Numbered from the stretch's first letter, positions 6,008 to 62,279 are shown. The stretch: 64,000 nucleotides of DNA from an uncultured Acidobacteriota bacterium (GCA_963697355.1 CAVONV010000002.1:56372-120371); one strand, 5' to 3'. Notes: generated by a model not told the origin, from the sequence alone. A program made the numbers and translations.

Positions 6008-6078
6008 TATAGCACAGGGGCAACGGTCAAGCCCGCCTTCGTTGACGGTCCCGATTCACTGTCGCCGACTTCAACGCG

Positions 6079-6222
6079 TCAGTCGACGGGCTGCCTGTCA
6101 TCAGACTCGACGGGGAGCTGAGTTTGGTGACTACTCGAATAGCCGCGGAAAGGGCTGATCCACTGCGCTAGTTGAAGGAGAAGAGCCCCAACGAGAACGA
6201 CGAGAACGATAAATGTGCGCAT
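6079..6222 (-). CDS. Small hypothetical membrane peptide (47 aa), not in the ORF track
   Basis: AAGGAGG lies 5 nt upstream of the ATG (complement of 6220-6222). Translation MRTFIVLVVLVGALLLQLAQWISPFRGYSSSHQTQLPVESDDRQPVD has one TM helix plus an acidic tail. The stop is the complement of 6079-6081. Confidence 0.35.
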   Translation of the reverse strand: MRTFIVLVVLVGALLLQLAQWISPFRGYSSSHQTQLPVESDDRQPVD

Positions 6223-7995: not shown

Positions 7996-8040
7996 GATTC
8001 TTGAGTACTTGGGTACTCGAGTTCTCGAGTACCTACCGTG
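7996..8040. repeat. Degenerate GAGTTCTT-type tandem repeat with a small palindrome between convergent genes
   Basis: tgagattcttgagtacttgggtactcgagttctcgagtacc contains the hairpin GAGTAC ttgg GTACTC and octamer-like units shared with sites at 18.5, 25.2, 50.7 and 55.8 kb. Confidence 0.4.
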
Positions 8041-18471: not shown

Positions 18472-18526
18472 GGTAACTGAGTTCTCGGGTTCTTGAGTTC
18501 TGGTTTCTCGAGTTCTTGAGTTCTTC
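18472..18526. repeat. Tandem degenerate octamer (GTTCTTGA)n, about 6 units
   Basis: gttctcgg gttcttga gttctggt ttctcga gttcttga gttcttcc. The same motif recurs at 7996, 25101, 25231, 50661 and 55820. Confidence 0.5.
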
Positions 18527-25100: not shown

Positions 25101-25290
25101 AACTGCCTCTTATCAAGAACTCAAGCCCGCCTCCGTCGGTGATGCCGATTCGTCGCCACCGACTTCGGCGAGGCCTCGCCGAAGCCGTTGGTTCGCAATC
25201 TCGAGCACCAACGGCGGAGGCGGGAATTCAAGAACTCAAGAACTCAAGAATTCAAGAACTCGAGAGTCGAGAGATTGTAGCGATCTTGCG
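25101..25290. repeat. Composite imperfect palindrome containing CTTCGGCGAGGCCTCGCCGAAG and four CAAGAACT octamers
   Basis: It lies in the divergent promoter region between the UbiA-like gene and galK. The core hairpin is the 22-bp perfect palindrome cttcggcgagg/cctcgccgaag. It is homologous to segments at 55951-56000 and 56205-56225. Confidence 0.5.
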
Positions 25291-31984: not shown

Positions 31985-32130
31985 CGATTACCCGGCGGGT
32001 TTGACGTGGGCGGGTGGCAAGTAGCGACTGCTTGACTGCCCGCCTACGCGGTATTTGATTTCTACTCAGCTTCGGCGGGTCCGCTGTAGCCTTGGCGTAG
32101 GCGGACTCGACTGCTTGACCGCTTGCATTG
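31985..32130. repeat. Copy of the mosaic intergenic repeat (GACTGCTTGACTGCC and CTTCGGCGGGTCCGC modules)
   Basis: gcgactgcttgactgcccgcctacgcgg ... cttcggcgggtccgctgtagccttggcgtaggcggactcgactgcttgaccgc. These modules are shared with 50.6-50.75 kb. Confidence 0.4.
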
Positions 32131-42240: not shown

Positions 42241-43023
42241 GTGCTGAAGAATCTCGTCAACCTATATCGCTACCGGGTCCTGATCCAGAGTTTGGTGGTC
42301 CGGGAGCTCAAGGCCCGCTACCGTGGCTCGGTGTTGGGTTTTCTGTGGTCTTTCATCAATCCTTTGTTGCAGCTCCTGATCTATTGGTTCGTATTCGCGG
42401 TGATCTTTCGCAGTCGGCAGGAGGGTGCCGAACCTTACGCCTTGTTTCTTTTCACGGGCATTCTCCCCTGGACCTGGTTTAGCTCCTCGGTCATGGAGTC
42501 CACCATGATCCTCATCACCAGTGGGAATCTCATCAAAAAGATCATGTTCCCGGCTGAGGTCCTGCCCTTCGTCGTGGTGTTTGCCAATCTCGTGCACTTT
42601 GTTCTCGGGCTGCCGATCCTGCTAGTCTTTCTCATCTACTACGGAAAGATTTATTCTCCCCTCATCTACTTTCCGGGGATTGTCCTTATACAGCTGGTGT
42701 TCACGCTGGGAGTTTGCCTCTTCGTTTCGGCTCTTTCAGTGCACTTTCGTGACGTCCAGAACATCATGGGAAACCTCTTGATGTTCTGGTTCTTCGCGAG
42801 TCCGGTCATCTACTCCTACATCCTGATGCCAAATCTCCAAAAGTGGCTCAATTTCAATCCCATGACCCATATCTTGGTTGGGTACCATCAAACCCTTTTC
42901 TTTAGTGAAGGGCTGGGGCATTGGCCTTGGATTCTCTTTGTGGCCGGATTCTCCATCGTCGTTTTCCTCTTCGGTTACTTCTTCTTCGATCGCATGCGCG
43001 ACACGTTTGCTGAGGAGGTCTAG
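42241..43023 (+). CDS. ABC-2 type polysaccharide/O-antigen exporter permease (Wzm/TagG-like)
   Basis: Six TM helices. N-terminus LVVRELKARYRGSVLGFLW is typical of this family. Confidence 0.85.
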   Translation: MLKNLVNLYRYRVLIQSLVVRELKARYRGSVLGFLWSFINPLLQLLIYWFVFAVIFRSRQEGAEPYALFLFTGILPWTWFSSSVMESTMILITSGNLIKKIMFPAEVLPFVVVFANLVHFVLGLPILLVFLIYYGKIYSPLIYFPGIVLIQLVFTLGVCLFVSALSVHFRDVQNIMGNLLMFWFFASPVIYSYILMPNLQKWLNFNPMTHILVGYHQTLFFSEGLGHWPWILFVAGFSIVVFLFGYFFFDRMRDTFAEEV

Positions 43024-43027
43024 GACA

Positions 43028-44365
43028 GTGGGAACTGCCGTTCGCATCTCGGATGTGTCCAAGGTTTACCAGCGGTATTCCCACCGCAAGCAGTTCCGCA
43101 CTCTGAAGAGCGCTCTTCTCAAAGGTAATTTGATCCAAGAGCTCCGTCCGGACGAAACCTTTACGGCACTTTCAGGTGTCACATTCAACATACGGGAAGG
43201 CGCTACCTTTGCCGTCATCGGGCGCAACGGTTCGGGAAAAAGTACCCTCCTCAAGCTGATGGCGGGGATCACCAAGCCCACCACCGGAATGGTCGAGGTC
43301 CATGGACGTGTCTCCGCTCTCATCGAGCTCGGCGCCGGCTTTCATCCGGAGATCAGCGGGCGCGAGAACGTTTTTATCAACGGCATCATGTTGGGGTTGA
43401 GCAAGAAAGAGATCCACCGATTGTTCGACAAGATCGTCGAGTTTGCCGAGCTCGACGAGTTCATCGATGCCCCGGTCAAGACTTACTCGAGCGGCATGTA
43501 CATGCGGCTTGGCTTCGCCGTCGCGATCCACGTCAACCCTGATGTTCTCCTCATCGATGAAGTGCTGGCGGTCGGCGACGAAGCATTCGTCCACAAGTGT
43601 CTGGACAAGATCAGCGAGTTCCGCAGGAGGAAGAAAACCATCATTCTTGTAACCCACAGTCTGGGCCTGGTCGAAAAAATGGCCGACGAGGCACTTTGGC
43701 TGGACGAGGGACAAATCCAGCACCGAGGTGACCCTAAGAAGGTCGTGGATGCCTATTTGACTCAGGTCACGACACGGGACGAAGACGTACTTGCCGCCGC
43801 GACGGAAAGAGCCCGAGCGGAAGCCGAGTCTGATCCTGCCGAGACGACGCTCGAGGCCGCCGACGACGCGGAAACGATCGAGCCTGTGTCGGCATTCAAG
43901 AGGGAGAAGGGACGTTGGGGCTCGCGCGAGATCGAGATCACGGGCGTGGATCTTCTCGGTGATGATGGTAGGCCGCGCCATGTGTTCACAATCGGAGAGC
44001 CGGTGACCATCCGACTCAAAGTGAAGACGACGGGGACACTTCGCGACTTTGTCTTCGGGGCTGCCGTTTTCAACGCCGACGGTGTTTGCTGCTACGGTAC
44101 CAACACGCATATCGAGGAGTTCACTCCCAAAGAAGTGTCCGGCGAGGGTGAGGTCCGACTCGTTTTGGAACGCCTGCAGCTCATCGAGGGTTCCTACTTC
44201 CTGGACGTGGCGGCCCATCAACGCGATGGATACCCCTTTGACTACCACAGAGCTCTCTACACGTTTCGAGTGAACTCGCGGATCAAAGACCTCGGGATCT
44301 ACCGGCCCTCGCACCGTTGGGAGTTCACTCCCAATATCGTGATCCGTTCTCCCGAGTCCTCCTAG
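43028..44365 (+). CDS. ABC exporter ATP-binding protein (Wzt/TagH-like) with C-terminal carbohydrate-binding beta-sandwich domain
   Basis: GTG 43028 lies just after the permease stop, with a GAGGAGG RBS. Walker [10 protein letters not shown], the LSGG-like signature YSSGM, and Walker B LLIDE. A C-terminal extension of about 190 aa follows. Confidence 0.85.
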
Positions 44366-44384
44366 GGCCGCCGGAGCATCTCTG

Positions 44385-44879
44385 TTGAGTACAATCAAAA
44401 TTCACACCTTGGAGTCGATGAAGGACGAACGGGAGAGACTTCGTGAGACAGGGCTGAATCTGGTCTTCACCAACGGCTGCTTCGATCTTCTTCACCCAGG
44501 GCACGTCCGTTACCTCAAGGAAGCCCGTCAGCTCGGAGATCGACTTATTGTAGCTGTCAATCGAGATGAGACCGTGGCTAAGCTCAAAGGAAAGGAGCGG
44601 CCATTGGTTCCGATAGCGGAGCGAATGGAGGTCCTCTCGGCTCTCGTGATGGTCGACTACGTCATTCCCTTCGAGGAGGAAACGCCGGCGCGGGTCATAC
44701 AAGAGCTGGTACCGGATGTCCTCGTCAAGGGTGGAGACTGGCCTATCGATCAGATCGTGGGTAGGGACATCGTCGAAGCCGCCGGGGGCCGTGTGATATC
44801 CCTCCCGTTTGCCAAAGGTTACTCGACCACTGGATTGATTGATCAGATCGTGGAACGACTCGGTGGCACCAGAAATTGA
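44385..44879 (+). CDS. Cytidylyltransferase-fold nucleotidyltransferase of the RfaE/HldE domain II type (heptose-1-phosphate adenylyltransferase-like)
   Basis: [16 protein letters not shown]...RDETV; 164 aa. Confidence 0.75.
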
Positions 44880-47800
44880 TCGCCTTGCTCTCGCGCGCAA
44901 GTTGGAAGAGGCCGGACTCGACCGGATAACCGAACGACTCACCGCCGGGGAGGGTCGCTTTCAGCTCACGGGTCTCATGGGACCCGCGCGCTCACTTGCC
45001 CAAGCGGTACTGATTTCTCGATCGGCGGGGCCGGTTCTGTTCGTCGTTTCGGACGAGCGAAGAGTGGCCGAGGCGGTATCCGACCTGAGTGCCTTCCTCC
45101 ACTCGTGGGGCATCGACAAGAAGCTATTCAATTTCCCGGCGCTCGAAGTCGATCCGTACCGTGGTCTTTCGCCTCATTTCAACGTCGTCTCGGCCCGTGC
45201 CCGAGCGCTCACGGCTCTCATCGAGGAAGACTCGCCGGTCATCGTGGCACCGGTACCGGCTCTTCTCTACCGGACGGCCTCGCCGTCCGTTTTTTCCGAG
45301 GGAATCGTCAATCTTCGTCGCAGAGCCATTTTCGAGCCGGGCGAGCTGGAGCGAAGGCTTCTAGAAGCCGGCTATATCCATGAAGATCCCGTGATGTCGC
45401 CGGGCGATTTCGCTCGTCGCGGAGGGATTCTCGATGTGTATCCTCCAGATGCTCGAGAGCCCTTTCGGCTGGAATTCGTGGGTGAGGAGATCGAAGAGAT
45501 CCGTACGTTTGGTCCCGAGACGCAACGTACGACGGGCTCTTTGGATGGGGTCCGCATCTGTCCTGCCCGAGAGTGGCCTTTCAATGATTCCCATCGCGAA
45601 GAGCTCTTGGTGCGGTTGAGGGAAAAAGGCGTAGCGAGCGAGTTGAAAGCCAACATTGAGAAAGGAAGTTTCCCGCCGGGCATCAACTTTGCGCTGCCCG
45701 AGCTCGACGATTTCAAGAGCACGTTCTTCGACTACGTCGGCAAGGGAATCGTGTTGATAGAAGAACCGGTGGAAGTCTTTCGATGTGCATCAGCAGAATG
45801 GGAACGTGTCCTCGATAGCTACGGAGAGGTACCCAGGCGAGCTGGAATCGCCCAACCCGAACCGGCCATGCTCCTTCTTTCTCCGGACGAGCTTTCGTCG
45901 CGCTTGGCGGAGCGATCGGTAAGCTTCCAGGAAATGGACATCGTGGAGAGCCTCCCAACTGAGGATGTGGAGTCCAGCCAAAGGGTCCATCTATCGAGTC
46001 AGCTCCTACCGGTGTTTCGTGGGAACATCAAGGATTTCGTCGACGAGATCCGAAGGCAAAAGGGGGCGCTCCGACAAGTCCATATTTTCGTTGGCCATCG
46101 CGGTCTCGCCGAACGACTGATCGAGATCCTCCAAGAATCTGATATGTCGGCGGGATTGACGGACGATGGGCCGGTAGAAGCAGGCACGGTGGCGTTGCAC
46201 CTCGGCGACCTCTCCCACGGCTTTGCTCTTCCCGAGCTCGGCCAAGCCGTTTTTTCCGGCCGAGATCTCTTTAGTGAGCCGCCGCGATCCGAGAAACGTC
46301 GTGCCCATAAACTGGGTCGCTTTCTTTCCGATTTTCGTGATTTGAAGCTGGGGGATTACGTGGTCCATGTCGATCATGGCATTGGCGTCTTCACGGGCCT
46401 CACGCAGGTGTCCGGGAACGGCGATAATGCTGAGTTCGTTCTCCTCGAGTACATGGGCGGCGACAAACTCTACGTACCCGTGGAGAAGCTTGATCTGCTC
46501 GAAAAGTACTCGAGCTCAGAGAGTGCGAAGCCCAAACTCGATAAGCTCGGAGGTACGGGGTGGGAAAGGGTCAAAAAACGCGTCCGCAAGTCCATGCGCG
46601 ACATGACCCAGGAGCTCCTCCAACTCTATGCGGCTCGAAAAGCCATCCCCGGGCACGCTTTCTCAGCGGATACGCATTGGCAGGCCGAGTTCGAGGACTT
46701 GTTCGAGCACGAGGAGACAGGCGACCAGTTTCAAGCCATCGATGAAGTCAAGCGAGATCTCGAAGCGACCTTTCCGATGGATAGGCTTTTGTGTGGTGAC
46801 GTCGGCTACGGCAAGACGGAAGTGGCGATGCGGGCCGCCTTCAAGGTCGTCATGGATGGAAAACAGGTGGCTGTCTTGGTGCCCACCACGGTACTGGCAT
46901 TCCAACACTACAACACCTTCAAGGCCCGTTTTGCTCCTTTCCCAGTTCACGTCGAAATGTTGTCACGTTTCAAGACTCCCAAAGAGCAAAAAGTGATCGT
47001 GAAGGGGGCGTCGGAAGGGACGATCGACATCCTCATCGGAACCCATCGCCTGCTATCCAAGGACGTCGAGTTCCATGATCTCGGACTCTTGGTTGTTGAT
47101 GAAGAGCAGCGGTTCGGGGTGAGTCACAAAGAGCGCGTCAAGAAGATGCGCCGCCGAGTGGATTGCTTGACGATGACCGCGACTCCGATACCACGAACGC
47201 TCAACATGTCCCTATCGGGCGTCCGGGATCTTTCCGTCATCGAAACGCCTCCTAAAGATCGGATGGCGATCCAAACCTATATCACGCACATCGACGAGAA
47301 AGTTCTTGCGAAAGCCATGCGATATGAGCTCGGTCGTGGGGGGCAGGTGTACTTCGTCCACAATCGGGTGGGGTCGATCTACTCGATGGCTTCTTTTCTC
47401 CAACGACTCGTGCCCGAGGCGCGCATTGTCGTGGCGCACGGACAGATGAAGGAGTCCGAGCTCGAGACGGCCATGCTCCGCTTCATAGGTCGCGAGTTCG
47501 ATGTCCTCGTGAGCACCACGATCATCGAGAATGGTCTGGACATCCCCCTCGTCAATACACTCATCGTCAACCGAGCCGATCGCTTTGGGCTCTCTCAGCT
47601 ATACCAGTTACGCGGACGTGTCGGCCGGTCGAGTCGCCGCGCCTATGCCTACTTGCTCGTGCCCGATCGAAAACAGCTTACTCCCGTTGCAAGAAGGCGC
47701 TTGGCGGCGATCAGGGAGTTCAGTGACCTCGGTGCTGGTTTCCGTATCGCGGCTTTGGATCTCGAGCTGCGCGGCGCCGGCAATTTGCTGGGCGGTGAGC

Positions 47801-50332: not shown

Positions 50333-50449
50333 CATTTACACGGCACCTGGAGATGGACGTAGGTCCGACTTCACCGGTCGGGCGAGAGTGATCATAGATG
50401 CCGATCCTCACTGCTGGCTGAGGGATTCGGGCCGCTTGCAGGGTATCAA

Positions 50450-50750
50450 GGCGCTCCATGGTCAGAAGCCAGTAGGCAGCCAGTAGAAGTGACCAGAGGT
50501 CAGTGGGCGGTAGGCGGTGGACAGTGAAGAAAGAGGCCAGGGAACAGTGGCCAGTGAAGAAGAAAGTAGGCGGTAGGCCGTCCGCCTATTCAAGCTTAGG
50601 GCGGACCCGCCGACCGCCTTCGCATGAGCTTCGGCGAGGCCTTGACGTAGCTTGGGCGAAGGCGGGCTCGAGTTCTTGAGTTCTTCGCCGGAGAGGTTCC
50701 AACTTTGACTGCTTGACTGCCCAGTAAGGACATACAACAATCCGAAACGA
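50450..50750. repeat. Mosaic intergenic repeat block L (CTGG-unit tandems, a 43-nt core, a palindromic hairpin and octamer modules)
   Basis: The 43-nt core 50583-50625 is 42/43 identical in inverse orientation to 56005-56047. Flanking modules are also shared in the same inverse order. Confidence 0.55.
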
Positions 50751-50751
50751 G

Positions 50752-51030
50752 TTGGGAAAACCTTTGCGGCTAGACCTCTTTCTCAAACAATCCAGGCTGG
50801 TCAAGCGGCGTGCCCTAGCAAAAGAGCTTTGTGAGGATGGTGCGGTCCGTGTGAACGGGGGTGCGGCGCGTGCGGGAAAGGAAGTCACTGCGGGAGATCA
50901 ATTGAGCTTGAGACTATGGAGCCGCCTGCTCGATCTCGAGATTGTGCACATCCCCGAGCGGCCACCCTCGAAAGAGGAGGCGCGGAAGCTCTTTCGTATC
51001 CTATCTGAAAAACGCGTGGAAGAACCTTGA
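50752..51030 (+). CDS. S4-domain RNA-binding protein (Hsp15/YlmH-like), small
   Basis: RLDLFLKQSRLVKRRALAKELCEDGAVRVNG is an S4 fold. TTG start. Confidence 0.6.
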   Translation: MGKPLRLDLFLKQSRLVKRRALAKELCEDGAVRVNGGAARAGKEVTAGDQLSLRLWSRLLDLEIVHIPERPPSKEEARKLFRILSEKRVEEP

Positions 51031-52052
51031 AGGGAATCGAACCCATTGCCATTGGCCGCGGGGATCAGAAGGTCACGCTCGATCCACCCTTTATACTGGC
51101 ACCACTTGCCGGATACACCGACCGCGGCTTTCGGGGTTTGATTCGACAGATGGGCGGCTGCGGTCTGGTCGTGACAGAGATGGTGAGCTCGGAGGGGCTC
51201 ACGCGAGGGAGTCGGCTCTCGAAGGAGGTTGCCACCGTTACGCGCGAGGAGCAGCCGGTAGGCGTCCAGATCTTCGGTTCTCGTCCCGACCGGATGACTC
51301 GTGCCGCTCAGGTTGTCGAGGAGCTCGGCGCAAGTATGGTGGACATCAACATGGGGTGTCCTGTTCCTAAAGTGACTCGGACCGGGTCCGGTGCCGCACT
51401 GATGCAAGACATCTCGAAGGCTGCGGAGATCGTCTCGGGCATGGTGAAGGCGACTCGAATTCCCATCACGGCCAAAATTCGATCGGGTTGGGATCAGGAC
51501 CACATCAATGCACCGGAGCTTGCGACCGCCTTGGAAGAAGCCGGTGCTTCCGCCATTACGGTGCATCCCAGGTGTCGTAGCGAGCGACATCGAGGAAAAG
51601 CCGCTTGGAAAGTCATTGCTGCAGTGAAGCAAGCTGTTCGGATCCCGGTTATCGGTAACGGCGATGTCCACTCCGTTGCGGATGCCCGAGCTATGATCGA
51701 CGAAACGGGCGTGGACGGAATCATGATCGGCCGGGGAGCCCTCAGAAATCCTTGGGTCTTCCGGCAAATCGAAGAAGGATTCTCCGGCAAACCGATCCTG
51801 GGTCCTACATTGGAAGACTACCGGCAAGCGCTAGATGACTTCGTTGCCCGTTTGGGCGAGTACCTGCCGGAAAAGGTCGTGGTGAACCGCGTCAAGGCGC
51901 TCATCGGGTGGGTGACCAAAGGTCTTCCCGGTGGAGCAGAGCTGCGTCGAACCGTCTACGCGTCGAAGTCTCTCGAGGAAGTCTTGGGCATCGTCGAAGA
52001 CTACTTCTTGTCAGCCCCGGTCGACTCTCCCTTCTCTTTGCCCCGCCCTTGA
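51027..52052 (+). CDS. dusB: tRNA-dihydrouridine synthase
   Basis: LAPLAGYTDRGFR, the FMN-binding TIM barrel, and the catalytic Cys region MGCP. Confidence 0.85.
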   Translation: MKGIEPIAIGRGDQKVTLDPPFILAPLAGYTDRGFRGLIRQMGGCGLVVTEMVSSEGLTRGSRLSKEVATVTREEQPVGVQIFGSRPDRMTRAAQVVEELGASMVDINMGCPVPKVTRTGSGAALMQDISKAAEIVSGMVKATRIPITAKIRSGWDQDHINAPELATALEEAGASAITVHPRCRSERHRGKAAWKVIAAVKQAVRIPVIGNGDVHSVADARAMIDETGVDGIMIGRGALRNPWVFRQIEEGFSGKPILGPTLEDYRQALDDFVARLGEYLPEKVVVNRVKALIGWVTKGLPGGAELRRTVYASKSLEEVLGIVEDYFLSAPVDSPFSLPRP

Positions 52053-52139
52053 AATCCTCGGTGGCATTCGACATGAAATAGTAGCAACAAGCTAGGACAC
52101 ATCTTCACCGTTCGCTGTCTGCCGCCTACGGGCTCCTGC

Positions 52140-52330
52140 TTCACTGTCTACTGCCGACAGTCCCAATAGCTTCTTCTTCACTTCCAACTAACTTGCCGCG
52201 GGCAGGGGCAAGGGCACGGGCACGGGGCATCCGCACGAAGTTAGTCTCTGACGCGGCGGACGTCCTGACCGTGCAGATGCTGGTCACTGGCTGCTGTTTA
52301 CTGATTCTGGTGACTACTCTTCAGTCCATC
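52140..52330. repeat. Two-copy element: G-tract run plus conserved hairpin (copy 1)
   Basis: gcggggcaggggcaagggcacgggcacgggg (5 G-tracts), then the hairpin catccgcacg / cgtgcagatg. It is about 85% identical over about 130 bp to 62120-62260. Confidence 0.5.
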
Positions 52331-52334
52331 TCCC

Positions 52335-55070
52335 TCATTTCGTGCTCAAGCGCGAAAGCTCCCGGGGGCTCAGCGGAGTTGCCGGCCCCTGGTACAAGGC
52401 ATTGAAAAGGAGCTTGAAGGTGGCACGGGGCTGAGTGCGAAACGACACTTGACTCGCGAGCGCCACTACATTGCCTCGGCCAACTTTGAAAGCCATGACG
52501 TTGGCCTGGTCACGGAGAAGGTCCCCACCTAGGAGCCAGCCGCTTGCGACAAGATTGTCTTTGTCCGGGTACCGCGTGACCACTTCCGCCTCGATGTCGA
52601 AACCAGGCTTGATGCGATATGCCTGGTCGTAGCGAAAAAAGATCGGCCACTCGCTCGGCATACCGAAAGCGACTGGGTGGTTCGGGTTGAATTGATGTTC
52701 GAGTAATGAGCCTGGGCAGAAGAAAACCGTCGCGGCATTGACGACATTGTCCCGGAGTGTTTTCATGAGCTGAGTGGGGCTTTGAAAGGCCTCCTTGAGC
52801 ATCCGGTCGGCTTGGCTCTTCGGGATTTGTGGCTCGTCGCGCGGATCGGGACTCGCTGATCCGCCGGACCGTCGAGGAGGCTCGGGTAGCAGTTTCTCGA
52901 TGGGAAGGTCGCAAAGCTCGCGCGCTGTCTCGACCGAGCTCCCCAAGGCAACAAGAGTGCCTCCGTTCTCCACCCAACCGGCGAGCTTGTTCCATCCCGA
53001 TTCACCGATCCCATAGGCCCATTTCCAGTTCTCATCATGCCGGTCCTGTGAAAGCCCCTCGATCATCCGTGACTTGCTTGTACCGGCCGGAAGCACGATA
53101 ACGTCGTACTTGGATGAGAGGTCGCCCGCAAAATCGGTCGACGACATGACCTGATGGTTGAAACCATACTGCTCGAAGAGCCACATCATCCAGCCCGCCG
53201 GCATGTTGCCGGCGACCTTGTAGAGGCCAATGCGGGTAGGTGCCTTGATGCGATATCCGTCGATTCCGGGCGCCCGGTTAGTGGCGGATACCGCGAGGCC
53301 CGTCTCTTTGGATACCGTCTGCAAAACGGCCCCGGCCTTGCCTTTCGGAGGAACGATCCAGGTGCCAGGCGAATGTTGTTTCCCATCCGCCTGGAAGCCT
53401 TTGGCGGCTCGAAAGACGGGGACATTCTCTTTCTGCAGCCGAGCCAAGGCCAAAAAGCCGGCATTGGACTCGGGTCCGATGAGATAGGCCCAACTGGGTT
53501 TGTTTGGAAAGGACGCCGGAGGTGGTGTGATCTCCTCGAGAAGCTCGAGGTCCGCTTCGAATTTTCTCTCCACCTGACGTACATCCACTCCCATGAGCAT
53601 GCCGAGGGTTTGAGCCGTCACATCGTAGGGAGGAATGGGAGGCCCTCCTTCGAAATACCGCAAATCGGGATAGATCTGTTTCTCGAGCATCGTCTTGGCG
53701 TAGGCGCCACTTGGTTGGGCGAGGAGAACGACCCAGGAGCCGGCCGGATAGTCATGACCATCCGCAGCAAAAGCGGCCTTGGCCTGATGGATCTCCACGT
53801 CACCCGTGTCGAGAAGCTCCAGCATTTCATAAGCTTCGAACGGATCTCTCTGCTCGGCCGGAATCACGAAAGCAAAAGGAGATTCATCCCGATTCACCCA
53901 ATCACGATGGATCTTGTAGAAATTCTCGAGCCAGGCATCGCGATACTTCGCCATGTGCTTGAGGCCGCCGAACTCGGCGGTGATGGCGTAGTCCACGATA
54001 TCGCCCAGCCGCCAGATGCCCTTCTCGTAGGGTTTGGGAAAATTCCAACGGATTTCCTGGGGACCCAAAGGCGTGTCTTCTCCAGCCGGGTTCACGAATG
54101 GGTCGGCCAGATTGGCGCTGGCTAACTCGGTCAGAATGCGGGGTTGGCCGTGGTAGACCATGTACTGGCGGGCCGGCGCCCAGTAGTCGTATTGAGTCGC
54201 GTAGGTGACGCCGCCCTTACCGTCCGAGATGAGCTCCGCGGCCATGGCGAGGCCGATTTGCGCCTGTGCCTCGATGATAATGGGGTGGATGTTGGGGTCA
54301 TATGGATCCTTGAACGGCGGAACGAAGATCCGAGCCCCCGTCGACCCCATTTGATGCATGTCGTGGGTGAGCTGCGGATTGTAGACGTTCTGGACTTTCT
54401 CGATGGCAAGCCTCGTTTCAACCTGGGTGAACATGAACCAATCGCGGTTATCATCATGGCCAACATACTTATGATAAAGGTCCGGATAACGACGGTCGTA
54501 GCCGGTCCCTTTGTTGTCGTACCAGTGATCGATAACGAGCACCTGTCCGTCGGGATTTTGCGACGGAACGAGAAGCAAGACCGTGTTATCGAGAATCTGT
54601 TGGATCTCGGCGGAGTCCTCGGTGGCCATCCGATGGGCGATTTCGATGATGGCCTGCCCATTGCCTACTTCGGTTGCGTGGATAGTGGAAAAGAGGAGAT
54701 AAAAAGGTACTCCCTCATCGACCAACGCCATCGCTTCTGTCTCCGACAGCCCTCTCGGATTGGCGAGGCGGCCGGTAATCTCCACGAGTCGGTCCATCCG
54801 TGCCAAGTTTTCGGGCGAGCTTATCTTCACCAGCACATAGGGGTGGCCCATGGTCGACTTGCCGAGCTCCTCGAACGTGACGCGACCCGAGCCGGCCGCC
54901 AGATGTTGGAAATACTCCAACACTTTGGGATAGCGAGCCATCTCCCCATCGGTTCCAATCTCGAATCCAAAAAATTGCTGTGGAGTCTGGACCGGCTGAG
55001 CCATGCCTGGCGCAGCCAGGACGACCAAGCTCACCAGAGTCAGCGCGATCACCGAGAATCTATGTCTCAT
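52335..55070 (-). CDS. Large secreted M14-family (zinc carboxypeptidase-like) protein
   Basis: ATG 55070 gives the signal peptide MRHRFSVIALTLVSLVVLAAPGMA. Zinc motif HATE (HxxE). About 911 aa with C-terminal accessory domains. Confidence 0.7.
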   Translation of the reverse strand: MRHRFSVIALTLVSLVVLAAPGMAQPVQTPQQFFGFEIGTDGEMARYPKVLEYFQHLAAGSGRVTFEELGKSTMGHPYVLVKISSPENLARMDRLVEITGRLANPRGLSETEAMALVDEGVPFYLLFSTIHATEVGNGQAIIEIAHRMATEDSAEIQQILDNTVLLLVPSQNPDGQVLVIDHWYDNKGTGYDRRYPDLYHKYVGHDDNRDWFMFTQVETRLAIEKVQNVYNPQLTHDMHQMGSTGARIFVPPFKDPYDPNIHPIIIEAQAQIGLAMAAELISDGKGGVTYATQYDYWAPARQYMVYHGQPRILTELASANLADPFVNPAGEDTPLGPQEIRWNFPKPYEKGIWRLGDIVDYAITAEFGGLKHMAKYRDAWLENFYKIHRDWVNRDESPFAFVIPAEQRDPFEAYEMLELLDTGDVEIHQAKAAFAADGHDYPAGSWVVLLAQPSGAYAKTMLEKQIYPDLRYFEGGPPIPPYDVTAQTLGMLMGVDVRQVERKFEADLELLEEITPPPASFPNKPSWAYLIGPESNAGFLALARLQKENVPVFRAAKGFQADGKQHSPGTWIVPPKGKAGAVLQTVSKETGLAVSATNRAPGIDGYRIKAPTRIGLYKVAGNMPAGWMMWLFEQYGFNHQVMSSTDFAGDLSSKYDVIVLPAGTSKSRMIEGLSQDRHDENWKWAYGIGESGWNKLAGWVENGGTLVALGSSVETARELCDLPIEKLLPEPPRRSGGSASPDPRDEPQIPKSQADRMLKEAFQSPTQLMKTLRDNVVNAATVFFCPGSLLEHQFNPNHPVAFGMPSEWPIFFRYDQAYRIKPGFDIEAEVVTRYPDKDNLVASGWLLGGDLLRDQANVMAFKVGRGNVVALASQVSFRTQPRATFKLLFNALYQGPATPLSPRELSRLSTK

Positions 55071-55323
55071 GCCTCCGCTCCCTTCTGTTTCGTACGTGCT
55101 TGCTGGGTATTCCAATCCCTCAACGATGACGAGATTGTACGCGCGGCAGCGTCGCCGGTCGAATGCAAAGACTCCGCATCTGAACCGTACAATGACACTG
55201 TGCATTACGCTCGGCTGAGCTCCGAAGAACGCATCGAACCACTTGCCAAACACATAGTCGCTTTCCTCGTATGGCTGGAAGATCGTCAGTAAGATTTTCA
55301 AAATATACTGAAGTGCGCGAGGC

Positions 55324-55707
55324 TCAATCGTTTTGTTTGCCGCTCGTTACGTCCTGATACGATCTAAAGAAATATAAGTAAACCGTGACGATGAGGAGCA
55401 GCGCGACGGCGCTCACCAATAACCATTGGGGCGCTCCGAGGTAGATGATCTTTTCCAAGTAGTGGGTAATGAAAGAACCCTCGTAGGACTCGATTCCTGC
55501 CCTGACCCAAAGCCACTGTTCGAGGTAAGTGAGAGGGCAGATCCAAGCCCAGATTTCTATGGCCAAGCTGTAGAGCACAGCGGCTAAGTGCACGCACTTC
55601 CATCGGCGGGTTCGCCACAGAAAAAAGGCTCCCGTGACGACAAAGACAATCCAAAGGAAGTGCAAGAGAACAATCCCCTCGGCTGCCCATTTGTAGAGAG
55701 CTGGCAC
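55324..55707 (-). CDS. DUF2784-like small membrane protein
   Basis: Four TM helices; conserved CPLTxLE...G motif. Confidence 0.55.
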   Translation of the reverse strand: MPALYKWAAEGIVLLHFLWIVFVVTGAFFLWRTRRWKCVHLAAVLYSLAIEIWAWICPLTYLEQWLWVRAGIESYEGSFITHYLEKIIYLGAPQWLLVSAVALLLIVTVYLYFFRSYQDVTSGKQND

Positions 55708-55789
55708 TTTCGGCTCCTGTGGCGGTCTTCCCTTTTTTGCCGCTCGGTCTCTTCCAACAGACTTCCCTGCAATTGTACGTTTTCACCGA

Positions 55790-56330
55790 ACCGTCAAACA
55801 GTCAAAGTTAGGACTCCTCCGGCGAAGAACTCAAGGACTCGAGAAGACAGTGATTCGACCACTATGTCGACTGGATTTGTGCCCTTGACTGACCCAACTG
55901 GTCACTGTGAACCCGCCTTCGCTCATTGCGTCACGCTGTTGGCTTCCGCCTCCGTCGGCGGCGCCGATTCTTGCCACCGACCTTGGCGAGACTCGCCGAA
56001 GCGAATGCGAAGGCGGTCGGCGGGTCCGCGCTAAGCTTGAATAGGCGGACTGCCCACTGCCCACCGCCCACCGCCTACTTTCTTCTTCACTGGTAACTGG
56101 TCACTGGCTTCTGGCCTCTCTTCTTTTGCTGGTCACCCGCCTTCGCCGCCAAGTCTTATCATCGGCGGCTACCGCCTCCGTCGCTGAATCGATCGATGGG
56201 CCAGCGACTTCGGCGAGTCTCGCGGTAGCTCCGCAAGGGAGTCGGTCGAGACGGAGCGTAGGCGGACTGGTCACTGATCACTTCTACTGTCTGCCTACTG
56301 GCTTCTTTCCACTAACGGCGTATACTTGTG
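55790..56330. repeat. Mosaic intergenic repeat block R (internally duplicated unit of about 220 bp), inverted relative to block L
   Basis: Unit A is 55900-56125 and unit B is 56129-56330. They share cgccttcgc..ccgcctccgtcg..cttcggcgag.ctcgc..taggcggactg..cactg..ctggcttct. There is no ORF with coding-like composition. Confidence 0.55.
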
Positions 56331-56490
56331 CCCCGAGGTAGAGCGTCATGAAGCCCGCAACGAGCTCCCGATTTACGATTCCGAAACGAGACCAGAAGCG
56401 GAACTATTCTGCAGTGACGTGTATCCAAACAGAGTGAAAGGTATACGTATGCCACGAGATGAAGTGAACCACCGGTGCGGTAAGAAGTGG

Positions 56491-62099: not shown

Positions 62100-62279
62100 A
62101 AAAAAGTCTCACGTGACTGGCAACTGTTCGCTCTTCCAACTAACTAGCCTATGGCAGGGGCAAGGAGCAAGGGATCGGGCAGGGGCACGGGGCATCCGCA
62201 CGAAATTAGTCTCCGATGCAGTGGACGTCCCGGCCGTGCGGATGCTGATAACTGCTCACTGGCTCCTGGCCTCTTCTCC
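62100..62279. repeat. Two-copy G-tract plus hairpin element (copy 2)
   Basis: ggcaggggcaaggagcaagggatcgggcaggggcacgggg, then the perfect hairpin gcatccgcacg / cgtgcggatgc at 62192-62202 and 62235-62245. Confidence 0.5.

Follow-up and report, generated by a model that had tools for sequence, protein, structure and literature searches.

Inverted REP/BIME-like repeat blocks and a palindromic element family in the intergenic DNA of an uncultured Acidobacteriota bacterium

Repetitive extragenic palindromic (REP) sequences, bacterial interspersed mosaic elements (BIMEs) and the REP doublets (REPINs) that accompany REP-associated tyrosine transposases (RAYTs) are the described systems that come closest to the repeats considered here. 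In the relevant passages of three papers (PMC3733652, PMC2817692, PMC3116915) they appear as short, GC-rich, imperfect extragenic palindromes that form mosaic clusters and dimers, carry a mismatch in the stem, and vary in content from strain to strain. What, then, are we to make of two mosaic blocks, L and R, that lie in opposite orientation on either side of four genes in an uncultured Acidobacteriota bacterium, and of the palindromes, which we call G2 elements, that are nested within them? The blocks belong to a stretch of 64,000 nucleotides (nt) (GCA_963697355.1 CAVONV010000002.1:56372-120371), which we refer to at its full length as the window and whose positions we count from its first letter.

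Other kinds of repeat bear on the question as well. Neisserial intergenic mosaic elements (NIMEs) are dRS3 repeats interleaved with RS modules, and the short tandemly repeated repetitive (STRR) heptamers of cyanobacteria offer a comparable case of tandem 7-nt intergenic units. In the passages that concern us, Di Nocera et al. 2013 (PMC3733652) report REPs that pair up as dimers around a structured spacer, that are inserted within other palindromes, that gather in large clusters or that occur inside genes; they list dRS3 as CGTC-1; and they set apart a distinct group of tyrosine transposases in Acidobacteria (TIRYT), whose terminal inverted repeats can form repeat families. TAACTGA direct repeats, in the portions of PMC4679880 drawn on here, are intergenic, often lie upstream of start codons, and are found patchily across phyla, in Beggiatoaceae, Cyanobacteria and Bacteroidetes.

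We argue, with a probability that we would put at roughly 60%, that blocks L and R are paralogous, inverted copies of a fast-evolving REP/BIME-like nest of intergenic repeats (tandem arrays subject to slippage together with non-autonomous G2 palindromes) and not the two ends of a mobile unit. The anatomy of the blocks, the family membership of their palindromes, the structural covariation within that family, the presence and absence of elements between close relatives, and the lack of transposon features support this directly. Mosaics of the REP/BIME type are an already known kind of structure; the words and the four-way layout of G2 are new to the literature that we searched.

Anatomy of the two blocks

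Block L (50433-50751, minus strand) lies between the stop codon of a SurA-like gene (50332) and the start of a gene for an S4 protein, and block R (55773-56311, plus strand), the longer copy of the scaffold, lies between divergent DUF2784 and OEP genes. In a global alignment (50440-50760, reverse-complemented, against 55760-56340), L is a shortened reverse complement of R with the order of its modules kept. A repeat search of the whole window resolves this likeness into four inverted pairs, 50566-50638/55992-56064 (73 nt, 90% identity), 50667-50737/55773-55843 (71 nt, 80%), 50523-50581/56063-56121 (59 nt, 81%) and 50459-50504/56266-56311 (46 nt, 85%), which are collinear and tile both blocks. 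The remaining inverted pairs between distant sites of the window reach 32 nt at most (70-95% identity), and the sole longer one besides L and R is a local hairpin at 25127-25220.

An initial annotation, made from the sequence alone, had described the two blocks as sharing their modules in inverse order, and both the collinear pairs and the alignment bear it out. The 43-nt core that it named (50583-50625 and 56005-56047) again gives 42 identical positions of 43 when recomputed, and its other modules, namely CTTCGGCGAG..CTCGCCGAAG hairpins, AAGAACTC octamers and runs of heptamers containing CTGG, were all located. It had also taken block R for a tandem duplication of about 220 bp. Two related units are indeed there (55912-56135 and 56136-56311, 224-227 nt from start to start), in each of which a heptamer array comes after a palindromic element, but they have diverged so far that only their first ~100 nt can be clearly aligned, and the duplication is not a clean one.

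Both blocks are built in two layers: a scaffold of degenerate 7-nt and 8-nt tandem arrays with unique modules, and GC-rich palindromes nested in that scaffold. The 7-nt units have the TAACTGA-like form CTGNNNN, and the 8-nt units are GAGTTCTT and TTGACTGC. If the blocks are cut at each CTG, most of the pieces are exactly 7 nt long (CTGGTAA, CTGATAA, CTGGTCA, CTGGCCA, CTGGCTT, CTGCCTA and others). The pattern is alike in L023, an independent short-read assembly from another sample (ERZ27251222) with the same gene order and coding DNA 90-96% identical to that of the window, where 12 of 20 intervals between successive CTGs in one scaffold and 15 of 21 in the other are 7 nt. As in the TAACTGA system, then, we see 7-nt tandem direct repeats in intergenic DNA, with TAACTGA runs in L023. 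Unlike that system, the unit is not TAACTGA itself (TAACTGA occurs once and TAACTGG three times in the window, five and four times in L023, and most units are other CTGNNNN variants); the units of the window are far more degenerate, they are mixed with 8-nt arrays, and they are interleaved with palindromes. Acidobacteriota are not among the taxa named in the abstract of PMC4679880. With NIMEs the blocks share an intergenic mosaic made of a short palindromic repeat and other modules in alternation; the repeat unit is a different one, however, and no tandem heptamer layer is described there. The passages of the REP and TAACTGA literature that we examined hold no description of palindromes coupled to heptamer arrays.

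The scaffold modules can be placed precisely. Block L has a degenerate array of CTGNNNN units at 50459-50560 (minus strand), whose unit number differs in L023, and a module at 50664-50751 (plus strand) that we call the A-end, in which two GAGTTCTT units and two TTGACTGC units are followed by a TACAA(C/T) motif and then by the 5' leader of the S4 gene. Block R, on the plus strand, has a 68-nt unique module (55844-55911), heptamer arrays at 56051-56131 (four ACTGCCC units, then CTGGTAA, CTGGTCA and CTGGCTT) and a distal heptamer array, the B-end, at 56268-56311, which is homologous to 50459-50504. A small hairpin, GGCGGGTCCGCC-loop-GGCGGAC, at 50580-50611 (minus strand) is part of the 43-nt core, abutting the G2 element of block L, and has its partner at 56019-56050 (plus strand). 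Neither block holds a credible open reading frame (ORF), and an independent gene call leaves both of them empty.

Could such blocks be regulatory? Some REPs have been shown to act as terminators, insulators or mRNA stabilisers, and one might imagine the A-end as a portable promoter and 5' leader for S4-Dus and for DUF2784-M14, with the palindromes acting in RNA in one of those REP roles. Both blocks, in both genomes, turn the same end of the scaffold, in the same relative orientation, toward a start codon (that of S4, called at 50764, is 27 nt away and that of DUF2784 66 nt), and this end is kept in all four scaffold copies, L and R in the window and in L023, including a TTGAC...TACAAT motif; in block L it also gives a weak promoter-like match, TTGACT-17-AACAAT. 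Furthermore, some 400 nt of hairpins put into a former SurA-S4 junction, which measures 38 nt in the relative L150, would plausibly call for a new promoter for S4-Dus. Against this, the spacing between TTGAC and TACAAT is 14 or 22 nt and not 16-18 nt; scans of both blocks for sigma-70 promoters and intrinsic terminators do not rise above shuffled expectation; and Rfam gives no match at its gathering threshold and, at E<=5, only an unrelated snoRNA model inside a gene. A search of the window for tRNA and tmRNA found none. Taken with the points that we give further on, a regulatory role of the blocks seems to us improbable, if the least improbable of the competing accounts that see the blocks as something other than a repeat nest.

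The genes between the blocks encode an S4 protein, Dus, an M14 peptidase and DUF2784 (the last from the gene call, the others from Pfam), just as the initial annotation had read them; two SurA-like peptidyl-prolyl isomerases lie upstream of the segment and an OEP/MFP/RND efflux operon lies downstream. These are housekeeping genes, and the order SurA-SurA-S4-Dus is kept in relatives without the blocks. One could also suppose that L and R are terminal inverted repeats, whether of a composite transposon or of a 5-kb cassette that holds these four genes and can be inverted (flip-flop), and some 280 nt of inverted homology at 80-90% identity do surround the segment. A relative with a Dus protein 75% identical to ours has no M14 gene between Dus and DUF2784, which points to a past rearrangement. 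Pfam on the local genes and tblastn with one IS200-type query, however, found no transposase in the window; there is neither transposase nor recombinase in or beside the blocks, no pair of insertion sequences, and no target-site duplication at 50433/56311; S4-Dus sits beside SurA-SurA in every relative examined, and the segment is never absent as a unit; the segment runs in the same direction in L023 as in the window; and homology of 80-90% with indels makes a poor substrate for homologous inversion. We therefore think it very unlikely that the segment is a unit of this kind, and the earlier preference for REP/BIME-like intergenic clusters over a composite transposon stands. In the 75% relative (the JGI contig with P0007), DUF2784 comes directly and convergently after Dus, and the 3-kb M14 gene would have been either inserted in the lineage of the window or lost in that of the JGI contig.

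A further competing account is an assembly artefact, for example a long-read mis-join or a duplicated consensus. The window does come from a metagenome assembly. A near-identical contig from ENA, L001, differs from it in a single patch of 5.5 kb (42250-47750, up to ~40 differences per 250 nt and many indels), where the TRCF call in L001 is one product of 624 aa and the ORF of the window has 1171 aa; the patch is either strain-level recombination or a locally poor consensus. Across both blocks, though, L001 is identical to the window, and in L023, assembled independently, the two scaffolds stand where they do in the window and are inverted in the same way, so that an artefact is scarcely credible.

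The G2 palindrome and its predicted fold

A G2 element is made of an 11-nt word that occurs four times, its orientation alternating from copy to copy. In order, the layout is a (CCCGCCTWCGC), a side hairpin (A), a' (GCTWCGGCGNG), 0-25 nt of spacer, b (CNCGCCGWAGC), a second side hairpin (B) and b' (GCGWAGGCGG). It measures 51-76 nt, or up to ~140 nt with nested inserts. The palindromes of the window all start with CCCGCCT(W/C)CG and finish with its complement. We ran a covariance model of the four-way structure, R1, built from metagenome copies only, on the window with filters off, and it found five loci, all intergenic, with E values from 2e-7 to 8e-3, the next match having E=2. This is a density of about one copy per 13 kb, and three of the five copies lie inside blocks L and R.

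The canonical copy is E2 (32039-32106; 47.7 bits, E=2e-7, model span 32039-32104). Block L holds E3 (50614-50666, minus strand; 42.3 bits, E=2.5e-6), with all four words. Both elements of block R are on the plus strand: E4 (55912-56016; 31.7 bits, E=4e-4, fold z=-3.3) is a G2 with an E1-like half nested in one arm, and E5 (56136-56267; 25.4 bits, E=8e-3 for 56171-56266) is a second, diverged copy of G2 type. E1 (25126-25224; 40.1 and 39.6 bits on the two strands, E=7e-6, fold z=-6.3 and -6.8) is of G2 type with long side arms and the apex CTTCGGCGAGGCCTCGCCGAAG, and it sits within an array of the AAGAACTC octamer (25224-25265). The repeat search adds a degenerate E1-like fragment (CCCGCCTTCGTTGACGG...) at 6027-6130 on the plus strand, a related site that the initial annotation had overlooked. 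Each element scores about equally on its two strands and is in that sense symmetric at the level of DNA, and the gaps that hold E1-E5 are of every type, convergent, divergent and tandem; neither property would be expected of the regulatory parts considered above, although the compensatory changes that maintain the hairpins, to which we now come, do speak in their favor.

How far does the family reach? A scan of species-representative genomes, among which the species of the window is not represented, with the degenerate pattern GGCGGGTCCGC-N10-20-TAGGCGGAC gave 21 matches, 16 of which are chance or coding; the extended motif was found in three metagenome-assembled genomes (MAGs) of Acidobacteriota and two of Omnitrophota. 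The pattern of terminal words occurs at 120 metagenome loci at least. About half of the matches listed look like REP dimers of the CGTC-1/dRS3 type, which are a different group ("group 1"), and the G2 layout is present in 79 copies at 71 loci among the matches listed, as well as in two window copies. R1 recovers L006 and L015, both of them outside its training set. Second G2 copies occur in five loci of 1-15 kb (L037, L135, L141, L112 and L122), and in L135 the two copies are ~30 nt apart, in a manner that resembles block R.

The fold was tested on an alignment of 48 metagenome copies, none of them from the window, and the model that emerges is a predicted four-way junction, with a central hairpin between two side hairpins that vary, all closed by an outer stem. 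In the central stem, formed by a' and b, one pair (columns 34-55) takes all four Watson-Crick types (GC 36, AU 7, CG 2, UA 1, with 2 unpaired). The side hairpins covary too, with UA 17, GC 6, CG 4 and AU 2 at columns 12-23 and GC 22, CG 12 and UA 9 at columns 65-81. An alternative pairing of a with a' (columns 2-34) is broken in 12 of the 48 sequences. In both long stems, the TWC and GWA triplets usually oppose T to T or A to A at their middle position (35 of 48 copies at columns 8/87, 34 of 48 at columns 27/61), and a mismatch that is commoner than pairing suggests conservation and not neutrality. The substrates that IS200/IS605 and RAYT enzymes recognise are likewise imperfect palindromes with conserved mismatches.

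Like a REP, then, G2 is a short, imperfect stem-loop palindrome, as its folds and the covariation and mismatches of the 48 members attest; and like the REPs of a BIME, the elements of block R are regularly spaced and separated by linkers, lying 224 nt apart and each followed by a heptamer array. The features that we listed at the outset for REP/BIME (GC-rich palindromes, mosaic clusters, a stem mismatch and strain variation) all hold for the elements of the window. The differences are no less plain. G2 is a four-word, four-way junction and not a single hairpin of 20-40 nt or a simple two-REP hairpin; the linkers of block R are tandem arrays and not the S, L and r motifs of E. coli; no flanking RAYT is seen; and GWAG stands at the inner foot of the stem and not in an unpaired terminal tail. 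REPIN-RAYT systems, moreover, are described as mostly vertically inherited in the part of 10.1101/2022.05.22.493013 that treats the matter, whereas G2 spans at least two phyla.

With the GTAG- and CGTC-tagged REPs and the TIRtrons, the likeness lies in the nesting and the dimers of REPs: about a quarter of the metagenome G2 copies stand within a larger palindrome (L060, L136, L046 and L030 among them), sometimes a CGTC-1/dRS3-like one (...TCATTCCCGCG-G2-CGGGAATCC...), as if one palindromic element had entered the loop of another. The passages of PMC3733652 on these super-families and on TIRtrons contain no family with the words or the four-way layout of G2, and a search of that paper for the 11-nt words gave nothing; we offer a link between G2 and TIRYT as a lead only. 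In the open literature, our searches with the 11-nt words returned primers and unrelated sequences only, with no four-way layout and nothing for Vicinamibacteria-like Acidobacteriota.

G2 also recalls miniature inverted-repeat transposable elements (MITEs) in being small and non-coding, in being present or absent between close relatives, and in its complementary ends of 10-11 nt (CCCGCCTWCGC ... GCGWAGGCGG(G) on E2-E5, with the variant CCCGCCTCCG ... CGGAGGCGG on E1). It departs from them in that no parent insertion sequence was found, no target-site duplication can be demonstrated, and the element is quasi-palindromic throughout and not just at its termini. Direct repeats flanking the metagenome copies show no excess (mean 4.4 vs 4.0 nt). 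An extension of the outer stem directly at the element ends was not found; with an offset allowed, complementary flanks (duplex <=-18 kcal/mol) accompany ~27% of copies vs 4% of controls.

A few single copies deserve mention. In two Omnitrophota MAGs (L011 2740-2800 and L018 353-414) the element lies inside a duplicated 5' fragment of a tRNA, with the insertion point exactly between ...AGCTCAG and CTGGTTAGA... in the D-loop; an intact copy of that tRNA gene begins downstream, roughly 40 nt past the fragment, and the two genomes involve two different tRNAs. A T-arm-like string, GGGTTCGAGTCC, in some central loops brought to mind an origin of G2 from a tRNA, an idea that we rejected: the register does not fit a T-arm, and most loops read TTTGAG or something else. 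At L122 4428-4497 a G2 lies inside a 1520-aa ORF (alpha-amylase plus glycogen-debranching), between GDE_N and GDE_C, and may be an in-frame intragenic insertion of the sort reported for some REPs and for Rickettsia palindromic elements.

Turnover between close relatives

L023 has both scaffolds, but by alignment and by R1 it has none of E3, E4 and E5. It also lacks 100 nt at 50333-50432 and a 187-nt element at 52138-52324, its heptamer unit numbers differ from those of the window, and it retains the 68-nt module in both scaffolds where the window has it in R only. At L023 5385-5491, block R has an insert of its own, ~107 nt with a near-perfect hairpin, CAGGGAAAAAGGGGAC/CTGTCCCCTTTTTCCCTG, that is absent from the window. 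From the comparison of the two genomes we conclude that elements and arrays turn over faster than the genes diverge.

Farther out, the Dus protein is 86% identical to that of the window in L149, 84% in L150, 75% in the JGI contig, 71% in L024 and 68% in L027, and the best named homologues, at ~65% identity, come from a 'Vicinamibacteria bacterium'. From L150 onward block L is absent: the gap between the second SurA gene and S4 is 38 nt in L150, 20 nt in the JGI contig, 14 nt in L024 and ~50 nt in L027. The 38-nt gap of L150 already holds a small motif, GACTGCT twice. R1 finds no member of the family in L023 or in these four relatives. The initial annotation would have counted absence from close relatives against the family. 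The elements are indeed missing from a relative at ~95%, and block L is missing where Dus is at most 84% identical, but we take this for a sign that they were gained or lost recently; it speaks for mobile or unstable elements and not against the existence of a family. Judging from these alignments, the scaffold was acquired within a narrow clade, and the palindromes and array lengths have changed since a divergence of ~5%. That the palindromes are absent from so close a relative with the same genes is also the last of our points against a regulatory role.

The right parts of E3 and E4 are identical at 59 of 62 positions and stand at the same position in the scaffold, down to the non-canonical small hairpin. 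A shared part at a shared position points to copying between L and R, and gene conversion would explain it better than two independent insertions.

Might the arrays themselves be the functional part, as multivalent sites for a nucleoid-associated or post-transcriptional regulator, with the palindromes as incidental passengers? CTG recurs at a strict 7-nt period, L023 has true TAACTGA and TAACTGG runs, and the arrays of block R lie near start codons; the relevant portion of PMC4679880 offers a precedent in its proposal of TAACTGA repeats as binding sites. Arrays of period 7-8 with at least three copies are, moreover, 5-6 times as dense in loci with CCCGCC-type palindromes (15.0 and 13.1 per 100 kb) as in controls (2.5), and arrays of periods 6 and 9 are equally dense across the same sets (8.3, 7.0 and 8.6 per 100 kb). 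This comparison sets 71 family-bearing metagenome and MAG loci (360 kb) against a small control set (163 kb) of different taxonomy, and the enrichment has to be read accordingly. The units are also highly degenerate and vary freely in number between relatives at ~95%, arrays occur between convergent gene ends as well (at 8000 and 18478), and no candidate binding protein was identified. We consider a binding-site function for the arrays doubtful, and a little more so than a regulatory role for the blocks.

Elsewhere in the window, between convergent genes in both cases, lie an array of six TGAGTTCT octamers (18478-18525) and one of four CTTGAGTA octamers (8000-8032); the Acidobacteriota locus L012 shares the octamer CTTGAGTT with the window. 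The initial annotation had pointed to six further sites (7996, 18472, 25101, 31985, 52140 and 62100), and related material is present at all of them, but 52140 and 62100 belong to a third, distinct family. Its two copies (52138-52324, inside the bracketed segment, and 62100-62279, found in the repeat search; both on the plus strand) share a core of ~110 nt at ~83% identity, in which a GGGCA(C/G) hexamer run, a G-quadruplex motif on the plus strand (52200-52227 and 62171-62192), is followed by a stem, GCATCCGCACG...CGTGC(A/G)GATGC. Both copies lie between convergent genes, in the same orientation and with flanks of CTGNNNN heptamers.

In all, repeat-bearing DNA amounts to ~1.8 kb, or 2.9% of the window, close to the 3% first estimated. 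The module words do largely keep to intergenic DNA: AGAACTCA occurs 8 times in the 6.5 kb of intergenic DNA and 7 is the count for CCGCCTAC, with none of either in the 57 kb of coding DNA. What has to be revised is the notion of a single modular repeat family belonging to this lineage. The palindromes form a dispersed family, as had been supposed, but one that extends well beyond this genome, to other Acidobacteriota, to Omnitrophota and to many soil and aquatic metagenome contigs, and is not lineage-specific; in the blocks, repeats of two or more unrelated kinds are mingled, and they evolve differently.

How the elements may move, and what they mean

The mechanism that we favor has several parts. 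The heptamer and octamer arrays would grow and shrink by replication slippage. G2 would be non-autonomous mobile DNA of a REP- or REPIN-like kind, quickly gained and lost, and copied or excised as a single-stranded hairpin by a trans-acting HUH tyrosine transposase (of RAYT or TIRYT type) encoded elsewhere in the genome. It would land in or beside arrays, for which it may have a target preference, and gene conversion between L and R could then have spread the same element to both blocks. The enzymatic step has indirect support in the conserved mismatches, which recall the substrates of IS200/IS605 and RAYT enzymes, and in the nested and dimeric REPs and the TIRYT group of Acidobacteria described in PMC3733652.

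Several observations weigh against this picture of L and R as a nest visited by mobile palindromes. The outer stem was imposed by the search pattern and gives no independent covariation, and the ends of the metagenome copies were imposed likewise. Direct repeats do flank E1 (CAAGAACTCAAG), E2 (GACTGCTTGAC, on both sides) and E5 (CTGGTCAC), but these repeats are themselves array units, not necessarily target-site duplications; the same array unit on both sides suggests insertion into arrays or, equally, a trivial result of the tandem-repeat setting. There is no clean pair of empty and filled sites: L023 has other sequence in the place of the palindromes, and gain cannot be told from loss. A tblastn search with one IS200-type query, together with Pfam on local genes, found no Y1/HUH transposase in the window, and the same single query, of low sensitivity for divergent RAYTs, found none in any fetched locus but its own source, the family-bearing loci (360 kb) included. 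The only Y1 transposase gene seen is in L027, and we set it aside as the enzyme of the family: the hairpins that flank it are of GGCCCC type and unrelated, and R1 finds no G2 there. The GTAG/CGTC tail by which the published REP super-families are defined is not clearly in its canonical position, either: GTAG/GAAG and CTAC/CTTC flank the GGCGNG/CNCGCC stems on both arms, at the end opposite to the canonical one, and their central base is usually mismatched. Finally, our copy count covers 64 kb of this genome only.

Two smaller observations belong here. The Y1 gene of L027, of IS200 type and close to the syntenic site, is carried by 2.6 kb of inserted DNA (L027 5174-7808) that separates TRCF from the first SurA gene. 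In L122 and L112, the ORFs between paired G2 elements (eight ORFs in the two loci, by Pfam) encode housekeeping enzymes only.

A bolder version of the story is tentative, and we think it rather less likely than the nest of paralogous repeats argued for above, though likelier than any of the competing accounts. In it, G2 would be a non-autonomous element of a class not yet described, able to spread from phylum to phylum (Acidobacteriota and Omnitrophota, besides many unnamed bacteria of soils and waters), whose W.W mismatches are read by a dedicated structure-specific enzyme; it would be coupled to the 7-8 nt arrays, either as its landing pads or as by-products of its insertion and excision; and gene conversion, and possibly inversion, would still be going on at L and R around housekeeping genes.

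For the genes on either side of the blocks, the consequences are probably minor. On the practical side, the two blocks give rise to spurious ORFs, and short-read assemblies are likely to break at them. Acidobacteriota are, to our knowledge, among the most abundant of soil bacteria, and we know of almost nothing about their non-coding DNA. The four 11-nt words and the covariance model now provide a searchable definition of a repeat family that is present in environmental metagenomes and in at least two phyla, and the association of REP-like palindromes with arrays of period 7 or 8 brings together two types of repeat that are usually studied apart. Should there be a cognate HUH transposase, the four-way geometry of G2 and its conserved mismatch would add to present knowledge of DNA recognition by such enzymes.

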